Shown: piece by piece, positions 9,830 to 16,505 of the stretch
Position numbering within the stretch: position 1 is the first letter of the stretch
Layout: each line of letters opens with the position of its first letter
DNA from: an uncultured virus (IMG/VR IMGVR_UViG_3300021960_000052)
Lineage: Duplodnaviria; Heunggongvirae; Uroviricota; Caudoviricetes
IMG/VR virus record: IMGVR_UViG_3300021960_000052
Strand: one strand, 5' to 3'
Length of the DNA: 64,000 nucleotides
Position numbers and translations under genes: made by a program
The notes under the pieces: model-generated
The model's database searches: none
What the model saw: only the letters and a program-made list of their open reading frames with translations
Told to the model about the DNA's origin: nothing

Positions 9830-9847
9830 ATGGCTATAAATAATGCT

Positions 9848-10555
9848 ATGTTGGTTAGTCATACACACAAATTCATTTATCTCAAAACACGCAAAACAGC
9901 AGGTACATCTGTAGAAGCATACTTTGATCAATTTTGTTTACCGCCCAACGAACTGCACGGACAACATGATTTAGTTGGTAGACAAAGCAAATATGGTATA
10001 TGCAGTGGACGTAATAATCTGACACACATAGAACCTAACATAGACGCAGATGTTCAAGCGTACAGTGTTTACAATCATATGACAGCCGAAGAACTTAAAC
10101 AAGAATTAGGTAATGAGATTTGGTCCAGTTATTTTAAGTTTTGTGTAGTTAGAAATCCCTGGGACAGAGCTATATCAATGTTTTGGTTTAAAGATAGTTT
10201 ATTAAGATATAAATTAGAACAAAATCCAGATTTATCGTTTGATGAAATTATAAAACAGTTTGAATATTGGTCAGGAACAGTTCCTAACAAACGATGGGTA
10301 GAACCAGATTACAATATTTGGTCCATAGACGGTCAATGTATTGTTGATGATGTTGTTCGTTATGAAACTATCAATGAAGACTGTGCTAGACTAAGTTTAA
10401 AGTTTGGTAAAGAATTTACAGAATTGCCAAGATATAAAACTGAATCACGTAAACAGAAACATCCTTACCAAAGTTATTACACAAACCCAGAAGTGTTAGA
10501 AAAGTTAACAGAATTGTTTATGCCTTACAGTAAGCAATTTGTATATACTTTTTAA
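9848..10555 (+). CDS. Sulfotransferase family 2 (carbohydrate sulfotransferase-like)
   Basis: PAPS-binding motifs FIYLKTRKTAGTS and F.VVRNPWDRAIS. Start moved to ATG 9848 because TATAAATA (9835-9842) lies 5 nt upstream and the ORF-track start at 9830 abuts the terminator. Confidence 0.85.
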   Translation: MLVSHTHKFIYLKTRKTAGTSVEAYFDQFCLPPNELHGQHDLVGRQSKYGICSGRNNLTHIEPNIDADVQAYSVYNHMTAEELKQELGNEIWSSYFKFCVVRNPWDRAISMFWFKDSLLRYKLEQNPDLSFDEIIKQFEYWSGTVPNKRWVEPDYNIWSIDGQCIVDDVVRYETINEDCARLSLKFGKEFTELPRYKTESRKQKHPYQSYYTNPEVLEKLTELFMPYSKQFVYTF

Positions 10556-10961
10556 GATGTCTAAAGACATCTGTTTCATCGCTTACGCTCGAAACTTATT
10601 TCTTAATTAACTGCTTTCCGTATTATCCAGATATAAGTCATAATTCACCTATCCGCAGGCAAATTATGACAAACGCATTATCCGAGTACTGCGCCATACT
10701 AACTAACAGAGATTGTATTACTACACGGAGGCGGTTAGCCGGTACCCCCTACTCTTGATTCATCCAGCGGATACTTGTCAATCCCTAGTTAGCGAAATTA
10801 ACAAGCACGTGAGTTGCTTTTTCTCAGAGCTCACATCATTTAGTTTTTACACTTAATTTTGTTACGTGCCGTCCCGTGTGCAGTTTGATCTACACGTTCC
10901 TTGTAGTTAGTAAACTACAATCTCCTCATAGGACACGGAGAACACTCCGCATCAGTGGCTG
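10555..10961 (-). ncRNA. Candidate large structured non-coding RNA (~405 nt) immediately 3' of the GIY-YIG gene
   Basis: ORF-free and GC-richer than its flanks. Stems at 10936-10949, 10901-10920, 10809-10834, 10774-10805, 10727-10749, 10714-10725, 10637-10670, 10573-10595 and 10555-10572. G-U pairs and GUAA loops are valid only on the minus strand. Confidence 0.75.
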
Positions 10962-11402
10962 TTAGTTTAAATCTTCTTTTAGTATGCCCTTTACGGAGCC
11001 TATGCCTAGTCTTATATTGATTATGCCGTTATAGTTGTCATCACGGAGTAACACATGCTCTTTTATTTGATAGTAGCACTCCATGTAGTTTGTTATGCCT
11101 CTTGTTTTACATAAATGGATTATTTCGCGAGTGAATTTATCTTTGCCTAATTGTTCGATATCATGTTGAAGCCGATCACTAGATCCCCAGTAGGTCTTCC
11201 AGTCCGTTTCAACAGTTTCTCGTCTTTTGTTTTTCTTGCCTTTGAGTGGTGGGCGTTTCTTTACTGTCCAGAAAAATTTCCTTCCAATATAGTCGTGCCC
11301 ATTTATGGTATTAGTAATACGATAGATAAAGCCGTAATTATCACCAATATCTTTTGTATCAAAAACTTGGTCTTGATATAACCAAGGGTTTTCGTATGAC
11401 AA
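10962..11402 (-). CDS. Minimal GIY-YIG (Seg-like) endonuclease
   Basis: YGFIYRITN...DYIGRK, YWGSS, FTREI...C, E and YN motifs; TTG start; no obvious C-terminal NUMOD/HTH DNA-binding domain. Confidence 0.85.
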   Translation of the reverse strand: MSYENPWLYQDQVFDTKDIGDNYGFIYRITNTINGHDYIGRKFFWTVKKRPPLKGKKNKRRETVETDWKTYWGSSDRLQHDIEQLGKDKFTREIIHLCKTRGITNYMECYYQIKEHVLLRDDNYNGIINIRLGIGSVKGILKEDLN

Positions 11403-11420: not shown

Positions 11421-12434
11421 TTACCATTCAGTTGCGTAGTCTAAATTGACTACTGACATATTACATTTAGTCTTACATTCCACCCAGGGGAAAATTTCAA
11501 ACCGTTCTTCCCAGAATTTATCTTCAAGAACCTCTGTCAACGCCCGTTTATTAAGGTCAAAACTATTACTCAGTTCAGACCATTCATTATTATGATTGTA
11601 CCTATTTGCTACCCAACAACAAGGAAGTAAACGACCTTGACTGTTTAGGAACAAGCCTTTATTGCCAATACTACATAAAGGTTTGATGTCTCCATAGGTT
11701 TTAGATTTTTCGTATAATTCAACGTTGGTTTTGTAACCTACTGTGCTAGGCTGTCTGCCTGATAGGTTAAGGACTTCACGTGTAAATCTATACTTATCGC
11801 TGATATTAGGAGTACTAGGTTGTAGTGGATCGTTTTTAGGGTATATAGGATATACCTGATTAAATTTTGTACTACGAGTTATTTGAAATTCATCAAACCC
11901 TAGGTGCTCAGCCTGTGCTTTCATAGTATCTAGGTGTTCTTCGTTAAATTTAAACACTATACAATCCCAAGTCATGTATACATCGCTAACCTGTCTAAGT
12001 GTTTGTACACCTAATATAATACTGTCCCAATTAGAGTTTACTCTATACTGTTCGTTACTTGCTTGGTCCCAGCCATCTAAACTAAAGTGTATGTGATCAT
12101 TTTCATCTAATACACTACCAAGTTGAAGCCACCAGTCTGCTTTTTTGTAACTACCGTTAGTAACAATAACAAACTTAACTGGTTTAATTGATTTAAAATA
12201 TTCAATAACATCAACAAGATCGTGTGCATATATAGGATCTCCGTCATCACCACAGAATGTAATCTTTTCTACATTGTCACGTATAAAGTCAGGAGTAAAA
12301 TTCTTTTTGAAAAAGTCAAGTCTAAGCTCAGTATTAACTAATGTTTCTGGAACTTCTTCTCTAGCACACCTAGGACACTTTAGTGTACATTTACTAGATA
12401 TTTCTATATGCCAATGCCAGGTTGCTAGTTTCAT
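11421..12434 (-). CDS. Radical SAM protein with C-terminal twitch/SPASM-like Cys cluster
   Basis: CTLKCPRC (CxxxCxxC), TFCGDDGDP, TNGS, FSLDG; C-terminal PLC...PCCW...CKTKC. Confidence 0.9.
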   Translation of the reverse strand: MKLATWHWHIEISSKCTLKCPRCAREEVPETLVNTELRLDFFKKNFTPDFIRDNVEKITFCGDDGDPIYAHDLVDVIEYFKSIKPVKFVIVTNGSYKKADWWLQLGSVLDENDHIHFSLDGWDQASNEQYRVNSNWDSIILGVQTLRQVSDVYMTWDCIVFKFNEEHLDTMKAQAEHLGFDEFQITRSTKFNQVYPIYPKNDPLQPSTPNISDKYRFTREVLNLSGRQPSTVGYKTNVELYEKSKTYGDIKPLCSIGNKGLFLNSQGRLLPCCWVANRYNHNNEWSELSNSFDLNKRALTEVLEDKFWEERFEIFPWVECKTKCNMSVVNLDYATEW

Positions 12435-13303
12435 TTAAATTCAACCTCGTGTTGCCATTGTCCTGTAAAACTAGTAACTTCTTCAACAGATCTACAAGTT
12501 GTATAACACATATCGTTGGGTTGGTCAGTTTTCCAAGATTGTTTAATAGTTTCAAATTGATCAATAGAATTATCTGTAATACCCAAATAACAACAAGGAT
12601 ATATAACACCTTCTGCTGACATGTATCTACTTTGTTCGTTTAGTGCTTGACAGGAAATATTACCAAACCTTACTGTTGGATTTTTCCAACCTTTTGGTGG
12701 ATTTAAAAACTTAACAGGATTAATTTCATGGCGTCTAGTAATTTTAGCTCTAAACCATTTAAATCCTAAATCACGTGCTAGTTGTTCACACGCATTAACT
12801 TGATGTTCGTTGTGTTCAAACACTAACATATCCCAATGAGCTCGACCTCCAGCTTTGATAAATGTCTGAGCATTTTCAATAACTTTATTCCAATTTACAT
12901 TTATCCTATAGATATGGTTAGTGTCCTCTAGTCCATCAATACTGAACACGCTGTAATCTTTTTCAGTATTTAATATGATACCTAATTCATGCCACCAATC
13001 CTGATCACGCAGTCCGCCGTTAGAATTCATTCCTAAACTAATACCTGGATTAACTGTTCTAAAGTAACGATAAATGTCTAATGTGTGTTTGCCAGCGGCT
13101 GGATCACCATAATCGCCACACATAAACATTTTGTCTAAGTTACTGATAATGTCATCACCTAACTGTTTACGTATTTGCTCTATAGTTAAATGATGTAGAT
13201 TTTTTTTATCAAACGATGTATCTGTTTCTCTAGAACATTGTGGACAAGCCGCATTACACGCATCTGTGGGTTCTAGGTGTAATATTTTAAACGGAGTCAA
13301 CAT
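12431..13303 (-). CDS. Radical SAM protein (paralog of the neighbouring gene)
   Basis: CNAACPQC, MCGDYGDP, SNGG, FSIDG, YPCCY. ATG 13303 is the likely start; the ORF track extends to 13327. Confidence 0.9.
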   Translation of the reverse strand: MLTPFKILHLEPTDACNAACPQCSRETDTSFDKKNLHHLTIEQIRKQLGDDIISNLDKMFMCGDYGDPAAGKHTLDIYRYFRTVNPGISLGMNSNGGLRDQDWWHELGIILNTEKDYSVFSIDGLEDTNHIYRINVNWNKVIENAQTFIKAGGRAHWDMLVFEHNEHQVNACEQLARDLGFKWFRAKITRRHEINPVKFLNPPKGWKNPTVRFGNISCQALNEQSRYMSAEGVIYPCCYLGITDNSIDQFETIKQSWKTDQPNDMCYTTCRSVEEVTSFTGQWQHEVEFK

Positions 13304-15056
13304 CTGTGCCATATGTAGTAAAGCCATTTTCTTTTGTAACTGTCATAATATTGTTAACTCGTCCTGACAGTTCGTCTTTGTGCGATACTAACCAAATACT
13401 CTTGTTTTGTTCACGTGACATCTTTTTAAGTATTGCAAGGGCACTTTCTACACCACTAGCATCCATACCTGAATCAATAAGTTCGTCAATGAATAACAAG
13501 TTAATAGGGTCGTAGAGGCTTTCATAGACATCTCTGAAACTCCATGACAGTGAAAGTATCAGTCTATTACGTTCACCTCTACTTAAATTGTCAAAATCTA
13601 ACTCACGGCCAAGCTCTGTAATTTCCACTGACAGATCGTTTAGGAAGGTAACTGTGTGTGGCAGTCCGATTCTGTCAAGGTAATAACTTAGCCGTGCGTT
13701 TAGATAACTGAGATTTTGATCAATTATTCGTTTTCTAATAAAGGAGTCTTTATTAGTTAATAGTTTTTGTAAAAATTCTTGATGTTCTCTTAGTTTAACT
13801 AGAACATTAATTTCATTATAGTCTGGGTCTTGTGTTGAACTTTCTTCCATTTCTTGTATTTGCTCAACATAAGGATCTTCTTCTTGTTCTTTTGATGTTA
13901 ATTGTGCTTTTAGTGTAGTAATTGAATTTTTATGTTCAAAAGCATCTGACTCGTTAGCATAAAAAACTTCAGGAGCAAAGCCTACGTCACCAAGCTCTGT
14001 TAATGCGTCTGTGAGTTGCTGTAAGGTCGCTGTGTGCGTGTTTACATCTTCCTGCACCCTGACTAGCGTGGCTTGTTTTTCTTCTAGCTGTGCTTCGTGT
14101 TTGTCGTCGTGTATTTCTTGTCCACAACTATGACATTTATGTTCTTTTAGTAACTTGATGTCTTGTTCTAATTTAACTATGTTGCCTTGTTCACGCTTAA
14201 GATCACGCTCTGTTCTCGTAATAGCATCAGTGATGTCATCATGATCTTTTTTGTTTTGTTTAAATTTGGTTAATTCTTTATGACTTGCTAGTTCTTGATC
14301 AATATCAATCTTTTCTAATTTTTCAATGGCCGCATTTAAACTATCTATGTCTTCTTGTTTTTTGTTAGCCCATAGAGTCTGTCTACGCTTCATTGACTCT
14401 ACTTGTTCTTTCATTTTTTCATTAGCATCTTTAAGAGCTTCAATTCTTATTTCTTCTTCTTTAATCCTATCTCTGGTTTCTTTTAACCGTTCTTTAAGAT
14501 TGTTTGCTTTTTCTGAAAGTAAGGTAATACCTAATAACTGTTCAATAATGTCTTTTTGATCGTTTGCTCTTAGATTAAGGAATGGTTCTGTGTAAGTGTT
14601 TAATGCTACTAAATGCTTGAACATCTCATGACTCATGCCCAGCATTGATTCAATAGCTTTTTGTGTTTCTCTACTATCGCCTTGTGCCATGTCTGTGATT
14701 TCTTGTTCTTCATCACCTACATAAAAACGCATAACATTTTTCTTACGCCCACGCTCTATTTTATATGTTTGTCCATTGTGTTCAAAGTCAAGACTAACTA
14801 ACATGCCCTTTGCGTTAGTTTTGTTGATTAAGTTATCACGTTTAATGTTAGTTAATGCTTGACCAAATAAAGCATAAGAAAGGGCATTGATGATAGTGGT
14901 CTTACCGGTACCATTCCTAGCGCCACTATCATCGCCTCCAAGGTCAATGTTAACACCAAGAACCAGTGTTAAGTCTCTGCGATCAAAGTTAACTGCTTGT
15001 GTGGCATTACCCACACTCATAAAGTTTTTAACTGTTAGATTTTTTAGTTTGAACAT
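13287..15056 (-). CDS. gp46: Recombination endonuclease ATPase subunit (gp46, SbcC/Rad50-like)
   Basis: Walker A GARNGTGKT, coiled coil with CHSC zinc hook, signature LSRGE, Walker B LFIDE, and SHK. Confidence 0.95.
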   Translation of the reverse strand: MFKLKNLTVKNFMSVGNATQAVNFDRRDLTLVLGVNIDLGGDDSGARNGTGKTTIINALSYALFGQALTNIKRDNLINKTNAKGMLVSLDFEHNGQTYKIERGRKKNVMRFYVGDEEQEITDMAQGDSRETQKAIESMLGMSHEMFKHLVALNTYTEPFLNLRANDQKDIIEQLLGITLLSEKANNLKERLKETRDRIKEEEIRIEALKDANEKMKEQVESMKRRQTLWANKKQEDIDSLNAAIEKLEKIDIDQELASHKELTKFKQNKKDHDDITDAITRTERDLKREQGNIVKLEQDIKLLKEHKCHSCGQEIHDDKHEAQLEEKQATLVRVQEDVNTHTATLQQLTDALTELGDVGFAPEVFYANESDAFEHKNSITTLKAQLTSKEQEEDPYVEQIQEMEESSTQDPDYNEINVLVKLREHQEFLQKLLTNKDSFIRKRIIDQNLSYLNARLSYYLDRIGLPHTVTFLNDLSVEITELGRELDFDNLSRGERNRLILSLSWSFRDVYESLYDPINLLFIDELIDSGMDASGVESALAILKKMSREQNKSIWLVSHKDELSGRVNNIMTVTKENGFTTYGTDVDSV

Positions 15057-15759
15057 ATTCGTACATTAAATTGGCCATGTGTTGATGGCCTTCTTCTAAG
15101 AAGTGTCCTCCTAGTCCTGTAGGAAACTGTTGACATAATTGTCTAAGATACCACATATCGTTATTTGGACTATAAAATTTACTCCAGTCTATTAAGCTAT
15201 AATAATAATGTATTTCTTCCACTTCTGCAAGTTTTTCGGCATCAGACTTGTGTTCTAACACGCGAAAATCTTTAAGATATTGCAGTATAGGACTTGCCTT
15301 CCAAAGTTGTATCATACCATCGAACGTATGAATCATTAGATAGTTTTTATCTTTTAATAAATTCTGACAGTGTATTATCTGCTGTAAAAAACGTTTAAAG
15401 TTGTACTGACTGTTACACCATTCAGCATATAAAGTTCTACCCCAATCCCAGAAGAAAGGCTCTTTGCCAAACACAGGATGATGTAATGTAGGAACAAATG
15501 CTACTTCTTCTTCAGATTCGTCAGCACGAACAAATGTATATCTTCCTGGCTCACTCCAGGATATAAAATAAAAATCAAAGTCTTTGGCAAAGTGTCTTGT
15601 GGTATGAAATAAGATACGCTCATTGCTAGAACCACTCATTGAAGTGTCTACCATTTCTGCACCAAGTTTTTTTGCCAATAAGTTAGGCCAACTTGAAACA
15701 GTACGATCTTTTAATTCGTCGCCGTAGGTAAAACTATCACCAGTTACATATATTTTCAT
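15028..15759 (-). CDS. SGNH/GDSL-like hydrolase or acyltransferase
   Basis: N-terminal YVTGDSFTYG, G.SN and C-terminal GGHFLEEGH. Confidence 0.7.
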   Translation of the reverse strand: MKIYVTGDSFTYGDELKDRTVSSWPNLLAKKLGAEMVDTSMSGSSNERILFHTTRHFAKDFDFYFISWSEPGRYTFVRADESEEEVAFVPTLHHPVFGKEPFFWDWGRTLYAEWCNSQYNFKRFLQQIIHCQNLLKDKNYLMIHTFDGMIQLWKASPILQYLKDFRVLEHKSDAEKLAEVEEIHYYYSLIDWSKFYSPNNDMWYLRQLCQQFPTGLGGHFLEEGHQHMANLMYEYVQTKKSNS

Positions 15760-16505
15760 TGGTTTTTATTATAAAAGTTAATTAATTTATCTGCAATAGC
15801 ATTGTGCCCATCTTCTAAAGGATGTCCACCTTTACCAAATTGAAACTCTTTGTTGCAATCAGTAATGCACCATTGGTTAAAATCTAAATAATATGAATAA
15901 TCAATCATTGATAACAGTGTTTGTATATTATTATATTCAGCAAGTATTTGATCATCATTGAGATAATCAAAAAAATCTAATAATGGCTTAACATTAAAAA
16001 TAAATTTATCTTTAGGACTAGTCCATTTTTCTAAATTGTTTTCTACAGCATTCAACATAATGTATTTTTTATTTTGTTTTTCAAAAACTGACTGTAAAAG
16101 TATTATTTCTTGTAGCCATTTTTTAAATTCATATAACTCATTATGCCAATGTGTGTAATAAAGTTTTCCATAATCATAATATTTTTTATAGTTTTCTTTT
16201 AAATCATTACTTAAATGTAAAGATGTTTCTAAATTTAAGTTAGGAGTAAAATTAATTTCAAAATTATCTACAGGATTATATTCAGTAAATCTATTATAAT
16301 TGGTCCAGGCAATTATAAAGTATTCATACTCATTTAAATTTTGTACTGTACGGTATACAATTCTTTGATTTGATCCTCCAGACTCTGCATCATTTACAAA
16401 CTCTAATCCAAGTTTTTTAGACATCACTGCCGGAAATGCTGTTGTTTTTGGATCAGTTAATTCATCTCCTTTGGTAAAACTACATCCATTAAAATATAAT
16501 TTCAT
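15756..16505 (-). CDS. SGNH/GDSL-like hydrolase or acyltransferase (paralog; very AT-rich)
   Basis: YFNGCSFTKG, GGSN and GGHPLEDGH. Confidence 0.7.
   Translation of the reverse strand: MKLYFNGCSFTKGDELTDPKTTAFPAVMSKKLGLEFVNDAESGGSNQRIVYRTVQNLNEYEYFIIAWTNYNRFTEYNPVDNFEINFTPNLNLETSLHLSNDLKENYKKYYDYGKLYYTHWHNELYEFKKWLQEIILLQSVFEKQNKKYIMLNAVENNLEKWTSPKDKFIFNVKPLLDFFDYLNDDQILAEYNNIQTLLSMIDYSYYLDFNQWCITDCNKEFQFGKGGHPLEDGHNAIADKLINFYNKNQ

Follow-up and report, generated by a model that had tools for sequence, protein, structure and literature searches.

The motif Polynucleobacter-1 (RF01718) was catalogued in 2010 by Weinberg et al., with a table entry that reads probably cis-regulatory and gives no function (PMC2864571), and in our literature search only that paper names it. 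Long members of the 2010 alignment have a 3′ core made of CCGYYR and a GGUAC-GG-NYRA-CCGCC hairpin, and the SS_cons_1 line of the same alignment draws a 7-bp pseudoknot from a hairpin loop to just 3′ of a junction (PMC2864571). In phage T4, the origins oriF and oriG work through persistent hybrids, according to the part of PMC4412123 that deals with them. Mini-hairpins of the GCGNNAGC kind form much more stably in DNA than in RNA and are found at the G4 origin, at ssiA and at N4 promoters, as set out in the relevant part of PMC13037366.

Here we analyse a window of 64,000 nucleotides, the whole stretch of uncultured-virus DNA under study, in which a first-pass annotation had flagged an 8-bp loop pseudoknot inside a putative non-coding RNA. 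The flagged locus has the same 3′ core and the same pseudoknot placement as the long Polynucleobacter-1 members, joined to a 5′ module unlike that of Polynucleobacter-1. The 2010 alignment ends at the 3′ arm of this pseudoknot, and neither the second pseudoknot nor the R1/R2 repeats, hairpin P11 or DNA tail described below are drawn in it (PMC2864571). The clues to a function are found 3′ of the flagged pairing and suggest action on the element's own DNA.

A structured element in a jumbo phage

The virus record to which the window belongs is 77 kb long and has a portal-like gene, a baseplate hub, gp46/47-like genes and a late sigma factor. The portal shares about 50% identity with its counterparts in the Rak2-like jumbo phages Phosso, Atu_ph07, PA5oct, BF and 121Q, and the source virus is a Rak2-like jumbo phage. 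The flagged pairing sits in a gap between a SegE-type GIY-YIG gene and a convergent sulfotransferase-like gene (Table 1). Measured against shuffled sequence, the fold of this gap scores z = −5.18. No Rfam family matches the window at the gathering threshold, and the only match at E ≤ 10, to PYLIS_5 (E 1.5, on the other strand), was rejected as chance. We predict that the element consists of a structured RNA body (about 10959–10622, some 350 bases) followed by a tail of DNA hairpins.

Table 1 Features of the element and its upstream neighbour, in window coordinates
Feature	Position	Strand	Basis
Whole gene-free element, about 400 nt	10555–10959	minus	Fold z, homologues, consensus structure
5′ module, multi-way junction P1–P4, subgroup-specific	10868–10959	minus	Covarying helices 1–5; missed by RF01718
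Short hairpin P5 and hairpin P6 with A-rich loop	10808–10853	minus	Helices 6–8; 5/5 pairs of P6 covary
Hairpin P7, predicted to present the pseudoknot loop	10772–10807	minus	6/8 counted pairs covary
Pseudoknot 1, 5′ arm (flagged loop; 7-bp core 10792–10786)	10786–10793	minus	Covariation; SS_cons_1 of the 2010 alignment
Pseudoknot 2, 5′ arm (G-Y-Y-R of the conserved CCGYYR)	10765–10768	minus	Covariation
P8 (10755–10752/10711–10708) around P9 (10749–10744/10732–10727) and optional P10 (10725–10714)	10708–10755	minus	Covariation
Pseudoknot 2, 3′ arm (Y-R-A-C, P9 loop)	10734–10737	minus	Covariation
Pseudoknot 1, 3′ arm	10698–10705	minus	Covariation
Direct repeat R1 (7-nt core 10683–10677), candidate RNA 'grip'	10677–10687	minus	Identity with R2
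Hairpin P11 between the repeats	10637–10670	minus	98.3% paired, G–U rich; terminator-like score
Direct repeat R2 (7-nt core 10628–10622), putative template-strand DNA site	10622–10632	minus	Identity with R1
A/T-rich linker	10596–10621	minus	72% A+T against 55% in the body, across elements
Tail hairpin T1 with the GCGNNAGC DNA mini-hairpin (10590–10579)	10573–10595	minus	Motif as in the relevant part of PMC13037366
Tail hairpin T2, perfect 7-bp palindrome, loop TTTA	10555–10572	minus	Palindrome
Stand-alone SegE-type GIY-YIG gene, usual upstream neighbour	10962–11402	minus	PF19835, E 1.6e-37; phrog_447

The element recurs widely in viral sequence. Among 80 viral loci found through the neighbouring GIY-YIG protein, 73 have the element downstream; six of the other seven end at the gene or at most 30 nt past it, and the seventh continues for 320 nt with different sequence. 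Two pattern scans of IMG/VR put the stored viral stretches, by estimate, at about 460 and about 1,300, a sum in the region of 1,700, and the predicted loop pairing has been kept in hundreds of giant phages. A scan of genome contigs returned mostly chance matches, with 4 of 120 loci matching the HMM, all on MAG contigs of 1.5–9 kb. The core was seen on four short MAG contigs (L267, L272, L303 and L316) binned as Flavobacteriales, Bacteroidetes and Polynucleobacter, which may be phage contigs binned with bacteria.

The GIY-YIG gene lies upstream on the same strand in 145 of the 160 elements with enough flank, at a distance of at most 400 nt in 126 of these 145; in 19 of the 145, an unrelated gene parts the two. 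The gene is not necessary for the element, because BF, 121Q and Atu_ph07 all carry the element and lack a PF19835 gene, and it is not sufficient, because Melnitz and P-SSM4 have the gene and give no core match; it is a neighbour, not a partner. A nuclease–RNA pair of the OMEGA/HEARO type found no support on the same ground, as RNA and nuclease gene are not in obligate co-occurrence. Nor did a retron, DGR or DRT, as no reverse transcriptase match (PF00078, RVT_1) was found in any of five genomes, two of which are near-complete environmental relatives.

The residues of the GIY-YIG motif are invariant in 140 of 140 associated proteins. Also invariant in all 140 is Asp-Trp-x-x-Tyr-x-Gly-Ser, at what we take to be the site where I-TevI has its catalytic Arg, as is a Lys near the YIG motif. 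The PHROG name 'NAD synthetase' for this family looks like a mis-annotation, because the Pfam match is to GIY-YIG; a PDB search with the protein gave no usable match. Several of the 15 elements that have no GIY-YIG gene upstream are instead preceded by an ORF that, from its sequence, we presume to be resolvase-like.

Arrangements around the element vary. In L335, element and GIY-YIG gene lie on opposite strands and point apart, and in L042 (3436–4152), L098 and L157 a second GIY-YIG homing-endonuclease-like ORF stands between the usual GIY-YIG gene and the RNA, with a weak NUMOD3 match in L042 (E 0.001). The word WAGGCA, sometimes in tandem, recurs just ahead of the RNA, at most about 60 nt from its start, whichever gene precedes (L085, L131, L371 and others); in the window it is found at about 11010–10975, and a crude position count gave no clear enrichment. 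A sulfotransferase-like gene and two radical-SAM genes stand among the replication and baseplate genes of the window (9830–10555, 11421–13327 and 15028–16505), two similar unnamed ORFs are likewise inserted among core genes, and the slots beside the element differ between relatives.

Two covarying pseudoknots

The two 8-mers of the flagged pairing, GCUAACUA (10793–10786) and UAGUUAGU (10705–10698), are present on the minus strand where the first-pass annotation had placed them. They can pair at 8 of 8 positions, seven by Watson–Crick pairs and one by a terminal G–U, across 81 nt where about 80 had been claimed. The stem under the loop is also there, although its length of 12 bp was a slight undercount, as 14 pairs can be drawn including four G–U (10807–10794/10785–10772). 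In a single sequence, such a partner arises in 1.1% of 2,000 shuffles of the 160 nt downstream; the real evidence for the predicted pseudoknot is covariation, not the single-sequence match.

Covariation was counted in two alignments. A2 holds 40 of 44 non-redundant full-length close relatives aligned by sequence-only MAFFT (four were omitted for insertions or near-duplication), and A3 takes in 50 of the 61 cores with a short linker from a distant subgroup. A third alignment, A1 (68 sequences from two subgroups), was kept out of the counts because MAFFT had shifted the pseudoknot register in one subgroup, and an anchored count was set aside because choosing the best partner biases it upward. 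In A2, 99.1% of cells in the pseudoknot 1 helix pair, five of eight pairs show two-sided changes, two never vary and the terminal G–U is retained in 38 of 40 sequences, while slid controls over the whole structure are 34–46% paired. In A3, all seven of seven pairs show two-sided changes and 96.8% of cells pair; its eighth position holds G–G or other non-pairs, which sets the conserved helix predicted for pseudoknot 1 at 7 bp, with the terminal G–U optional. The check for compensatory changes, with two-sided changes at 5/8 pairs in A2 and 7/7 in A3, thus finds that loop and partner covary and that the arms change together. On a tree of 64 neighbouring GIY-YIG proteins, pseudoknot positions 3–7 pair in 64 of 64 rows and have undergone 6, 5, 10, 7 and 4 joint changes, and position 1 pairs in 53 of 64 rows. 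One locus, L012 (3640–3720), is an apparent recombinant, with a 5′ arm of one type, a 3′ arm of another and one C–A mismatch remaining.

The remainder of the body is only partly as the first-pass annotation had drawn it. Its three-way junction has the proposed AGAG/CUCU closing helix, which is 100% paired with three of four pairs covarying in A2, but the junction is not universal, because A3 sequences, chosen for their short linker, have that linker in place of the GUAA hairpin. Of 98 elements in the two nearer subgroups, 93 have a GUAA hairpin with a stem of at least 3 bp. No support was found for the CGG/CCG top of the proposed 'GC-rich hairpin', because the loop of this hairpin pairs in a second pseudoknot. 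Pseudoknot 2 (4 bp) joins G-Y-Y-R, just 3′ of the flagged stem, to Y-R-A-C in the loop of the GC-rich hairpin. The search pattern preset pyrimidine or purine at these sites and left free which base; across 241 unique elements the middle pair is Watson–Crick in 241 (136 U–A and 105 C–G), the outer pair is standard in 241, and the remaining variable pair is U–A in 190 and C–A in 51. On the protein tree the middle pair has changed 17 times, and 5 of 5 supported pairs are concordant (p = 0.06).

The predicted body of the element is RNA-like, with 92 GNRA against 12 GNYA tetraloops and 405 G–U against 51 A–C pairs, and the core holds invariant unpaired bases. At the top of P9 (10744/10732 in the window), U–G has become C–A on both sides together in 4 of 241 elements (L022, L023, L024 and L030), a joint change that suggests conserved wobble geometry. 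Long A/T-rich insertions occupy the optional P10 in L157, L166 and L117, where the remaining core is intact. The earlier suggestion of a ribozyme or large RNP scaffold and not a simple terminator stands in so far as a real pseudoknot lies within a multi-domain structured element that is no simple terminator; its ribozyme or RNP part is unsupported, and no Rfam ribozyme model matches the window or its near relatives.

Relation to Polynucleobacter-1

The Rfam model RF01718, used with a criterion of 37 bits or more, represents the 141-nt 5′ module only. It has no match in the window at gathering or at E ≤ 10 and matches 0 of 20 near relatives; among more remote loci, it matches directly upstream of the core in 20 of 20 of the distant subgroup and 1 of 20 of the intermediate ones. 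A model built from distant (RF01718-type) cores alone finds the window with 34.6 bits (E 8.4e-7). Because the distant-core model finds the window and RF01718 does not, the window's predicted structure is the long-form core of Polynucleobacter-1 with a different 5′ module.

Pseudoknot 1 is drawn in the 2010 supplement, and the flagged finding is therefore a rediscovery, in a subgroup that Rfam misses. The second pseudoknot, the R1/R2 repeats, the DNA tail and the cultured copies go beyond the 2010 alignment. Our literature search did not find these four in print, where the additional file of the 2010 paper may say more, nor did it return a paper that describes an origin of replication or a structured RNA in these phages.

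Repeats that switch together and a DNA-like tail

Two direct repeats, R1 and R2, follow the core, spaced 55 nt apart in the window and 47–79 nt across elements, with P11 between them. We compared them in 198 unique elements (11 records were not parsed). At four variable positions R1 and R2 have the same base in 198 of 198, where 99, 177, 100 and 190 would be expected if the two were independent, and at the last variable position they agree in 197 of 198 (112 expected); the word itself varies. On an independent protein tree the repeats have changed 35, 26 and 21 times, and supported pairs are concordant in 11 of 11 and 9 of 9 cases (p = 0.001 and 0.004). At one position R1 and R2 are out of step by a single base, implying that R1 has a bulge of one nucleotide.

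A same-strand complementary site for the repeats was found in 4 of 136, the same as in the control (4 of 136). The repeats are thus related by identity and not by complementarity, which places the partner on the other strand; the simplest partner for R1 would be the template DNA strand at R2. Pairing of R1 with R2 inside the RNA was rejected, as it is possible for part of the words and cannot explain identity at repeat positions 5, 8 and 10. Because the match holds also in copies with co-oriented genes downstream and no convergent gene, a convergent antisense transcript is not needed. In EJP2 and in 7t3 the word differs between copies of one genome while R1 equals R2 within each copy, which fits pairing in cis and not the specificity of one protein. 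Across the cultured copies the last base of the repeats matches in 26 of 27, and no more than 14 of 27 agree at the base immediately 5′ of the 6-nt core, so that the hybrid may be only 6–7 bp. When the mismatches are read by eye, five are wobbles for R1 RNA on the R2 template and one, terminal and in the environmental locus L034, disfavours that direction.

Beyond R2 and the A/T-rich linker, the tail is DNA-like in its predicted hairpins. A C(GNA)G loop caps the longest tail palindrome in 73 of 138 relatives, the loop of the window's T2 not being GNA, and 146 of 192 tails contain GCGN(N)AGC, where 13 would be expected; among the bodies, 12 of 192 have it. Among 1,050 pairs of tail stems, two are G–U and two are A–C. 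The tail also resembles what we take to be primosome-assembly-site consensus words, an unconfirmed likeness to which we give no weight.

Copies in cultured phages

BF and 121Q have a 69%-identical, 520-nt non-coding stretch at the window's syntenic site, and this stretch occurs at 293 places in 72 phage records. The core pattern occurs in five copies each in BF, EJP2, XaC1, Kaldavass and 7t3 and in four in 121Q; Atu_ph07 has two convincing copies among three matches, and RaK2 has one (two by BLAST). The hosts of the cultured phages with the element are E. coli, Serratia, Erwinia and Agrobacterium. Both BF and 121Q carry a copy at the syntenic site occupied in the window, and they have a second site in common. 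Within each cultured genome all copies lie on one strand and are spread round the genome (minimum-gap p = 0.005, 0.05, 0.02, 0.07, 0.003 and 0.003, for related genomes that are not independent), while large environmental contigs have a single copy in 5 of 5. A TGnTATAAT-like (extended −10) motif precedes 27 of the 30 unique cultured copies and occurs in 7 of 60 control stretches; on the minus strand of the window, a search for sigma70-type promoters gave none.

BLASTN with the window's element and two relatives gave no matches in cultured phages, and neither search model R1 (a model, not the repeat) nor the HMMs score the cultured copies, which were reached through synteny only. Because the models do not score these copies, their kinship rests on the shared pattern, on both pseudoknots, which are readable by eye, and on P11, the repeats and position. 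Two of the BF copies (L476 and L478, at 174.9 and 259.1 kb) end in nearly identical tails some 100 nt long, a likeness that hints at a recent exchange between them.

The core pattern is absent from PA5oct and from Vibrio phage 2.275.O, and Phosso gives one-mismatch matches only, two of the three of which were inspected and look like chance; with no detectable core in these three phages, the element may not be universal in the clade. At the syntenic position PA5oct has a 1.5-kb gap (L443, 6500–7975; 75.7–77.2 kb of the record) with a sigma70 consensus promoter, a P6-like motif and a palindrome cluster. This gap has no statistical match to the family, the P6-like motif being read by eye, and may hold a more diverged or a different element; it is now annotated as four tiny ORFs. 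None of the four ncRNAs published for PA5oct lies at the syntenic site, going by the part of PMC7318152 that reports them.

Metatranscriptome contigs from 8 of 19 RNA runs hold pieces of the element; they reveal no strand, ends or level and so are neutral on expression, and no joint removing P11 was found among them. In two near-complete genomes there is no skew inflection at the element, and its rank as a bidirectional origin is 51 of 66 and 59 of 70. About 75% of coding sequence in the same two genomes is on the element's strand, so that the co-orientation of copies may only follow transcription.

Proposed mechanism and alternatives

We propose, with a probability of roughly 0.55, that the element is transcribed into a folded, ColE1-like primer RNA that grips its own template and opens an R-loop replication origin. 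The strand folds, as the covariation shows, into a double-pseudoknot core with RNA-type loops and G–U pairs. Transcription would begin at the element's own extended −10 promoter in cultured phages and, in the window, would probably arrive by read-through from the gp55–gp47–gp46 block. During passage of the polymerase over R2, P11 would bring R1 of the RNA close, and R1 could then pair with the template strand at R2, a step to which the identity covariation points. The hybrid would persist into the A/T-rich linker, with the displaced strand folding into GNA/GNNA DNA mini-hairpins, and finally the RNA 3′ end may prime the leading strand, the hairpins may load a primase–helicase, or both.

Several observations argue for a primer RNA at an origin: R1 and R2 switch together, have no same-strand complement and form words that match in cis; an RNA-like body is joined to a DNA-like tail; the copies are spread and co-oriented and have a promoter-like motif; and ColE1 and T4 provide precedents. 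The reading is weakened by the lack of a skew inflection, by the coding-strand bias, by the three relatives with no core and by the lack of a promoter in the window. We hold more tentatively, at somewhat under even odds, a wider proposal in which Rak2-like phages would start replication with a doubly pseudoknotted, self-addressed origin RNA. Its R1/R2 address would be a re-writable 7-letter word and its DNA mini-hairpins would hand the displaced strand to primase; such an origin would perhaps be catalytic, would need no initiator protein and would be portable to other DNA.

The same R1/R2 evidence would apply to an RNA guide whose R1 addresses its own DNA at R2, with a nick, recombination or packaging as the outcome and not priming. 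Invariant unpaired bases in the core would suit such a guide; the acting part could be the core of the RNA or else a nuclease of the phage, either GIY-YIG or the presumed resolvase-like neighbour. A GIY-YIG gene does stand upstream in 145 of 160 elements with its motif residues invariant in 140 of 140 proteins, and a resolvase-like ORF in several of the other 15, but the element occurs without PF19835 in BF, 121Q and Atu_ph07, the gene occurs without the core in Melnitz and P-SSM4, an unrelated gene intervenes in 19 of 145 and the strands are opposite in L335. We regard this account as unlikely. Slightly less likely is a free trans-acting RNA, a ribozyme or RNP scaffold in which the repeats would be a pair of protein-binding sites and the tail a terminator unconnected with it. 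The elaborate fold, with its two pseudoknots and invariant core bases, is what such an RNA might look like, and the cultured copies have a promoter-like motif of their own; yet two sites that switch together 21–35 times, words that differ between copies of one genome and DNA-type hairpins that follow would all be left unexplained, and no Rfam ribozyme family matches.

Control of transcription in cis, by pausing, by termination or antitermination or by protection of an operon's mRNA 3′ end, possibly through a transient RNA–template grip, would account for where the window's element begins, a few bases at most from a stop codon, where a gene block ends. The terminator-like score of P11 and the many copies that precede co-oriented genes agree with it. 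We nonetheless judge it improbable, as a copy syntenic with the window's faces a convergent operon, where there is nothing to read into, and neither DNA mini-hairpins nor spread-out copies would be needed. Spread as a non-autonomous mobile element, by a nuclease or a reverse transcriptase, is very improbable in our estimate: cultured phages do have multiple copies with terminal hairpins, and homing-endonuclease-like genes are inserted beside the element in some loci, but the element is single-copy in 5 of 5 large environmental contigs, keeps one syntenic site in the window, BF and 121Q and a second in BF and 121Q, and is accompanied by no RVT_1 match in 5 of 5 genomes.

Comparison with known systems

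A motif left without a function in 2010 is the front of a clade-wide unit that has an identity-covariation signal and is present in cultured jumbo phages. Should the proposed priming at an origin be true, the element would be a third natural design of RNA-primed origin, beside ColE1 and T4, and would supply a short programmable RNA–DNA grip. The model is testable in a laboratory host by comparing single with double mutants.

The G4 origin and RSF1010 ssiA, like the tail of the element, have GCGNNAGC/GCGNAGC hairpins in a predicted single-stranded region; unlike the element, they act on single-stranded templates with no long structured primer RNA, as far as the relevant part of PMC13037366 describes them. 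The layout proposed for the element resembles ColE1 RNA II, in which a transcript initiated upstream pairs with the template and the displaced strand exposes helicase and primase signals, as described in the corresponding part of PMC4412123. In ColE1 the hybrid forms from an rG stretch on a dC stretch (same part of PMC4412123), whereas the element would use a freely variable, mixed word of 6–9 nt lying about 55 nt upstream of its site. The element further differs from ColE1 in its two pseudoknots and its T4-like jumbo phage host, and the likeness we draw is one of layout, with no claim of sequence kinship. For the T4 origins, no conserved RNA fold or repeat pair is described in the part of PMC4412123 that covers them, and the element's promoter, where present, looks like an extended −10; what the element would have in common with oriF and oriG (PMC4412123, same part) is a T4-like phage with several putative origins, each combining a promoter with a downstream unwinding region.
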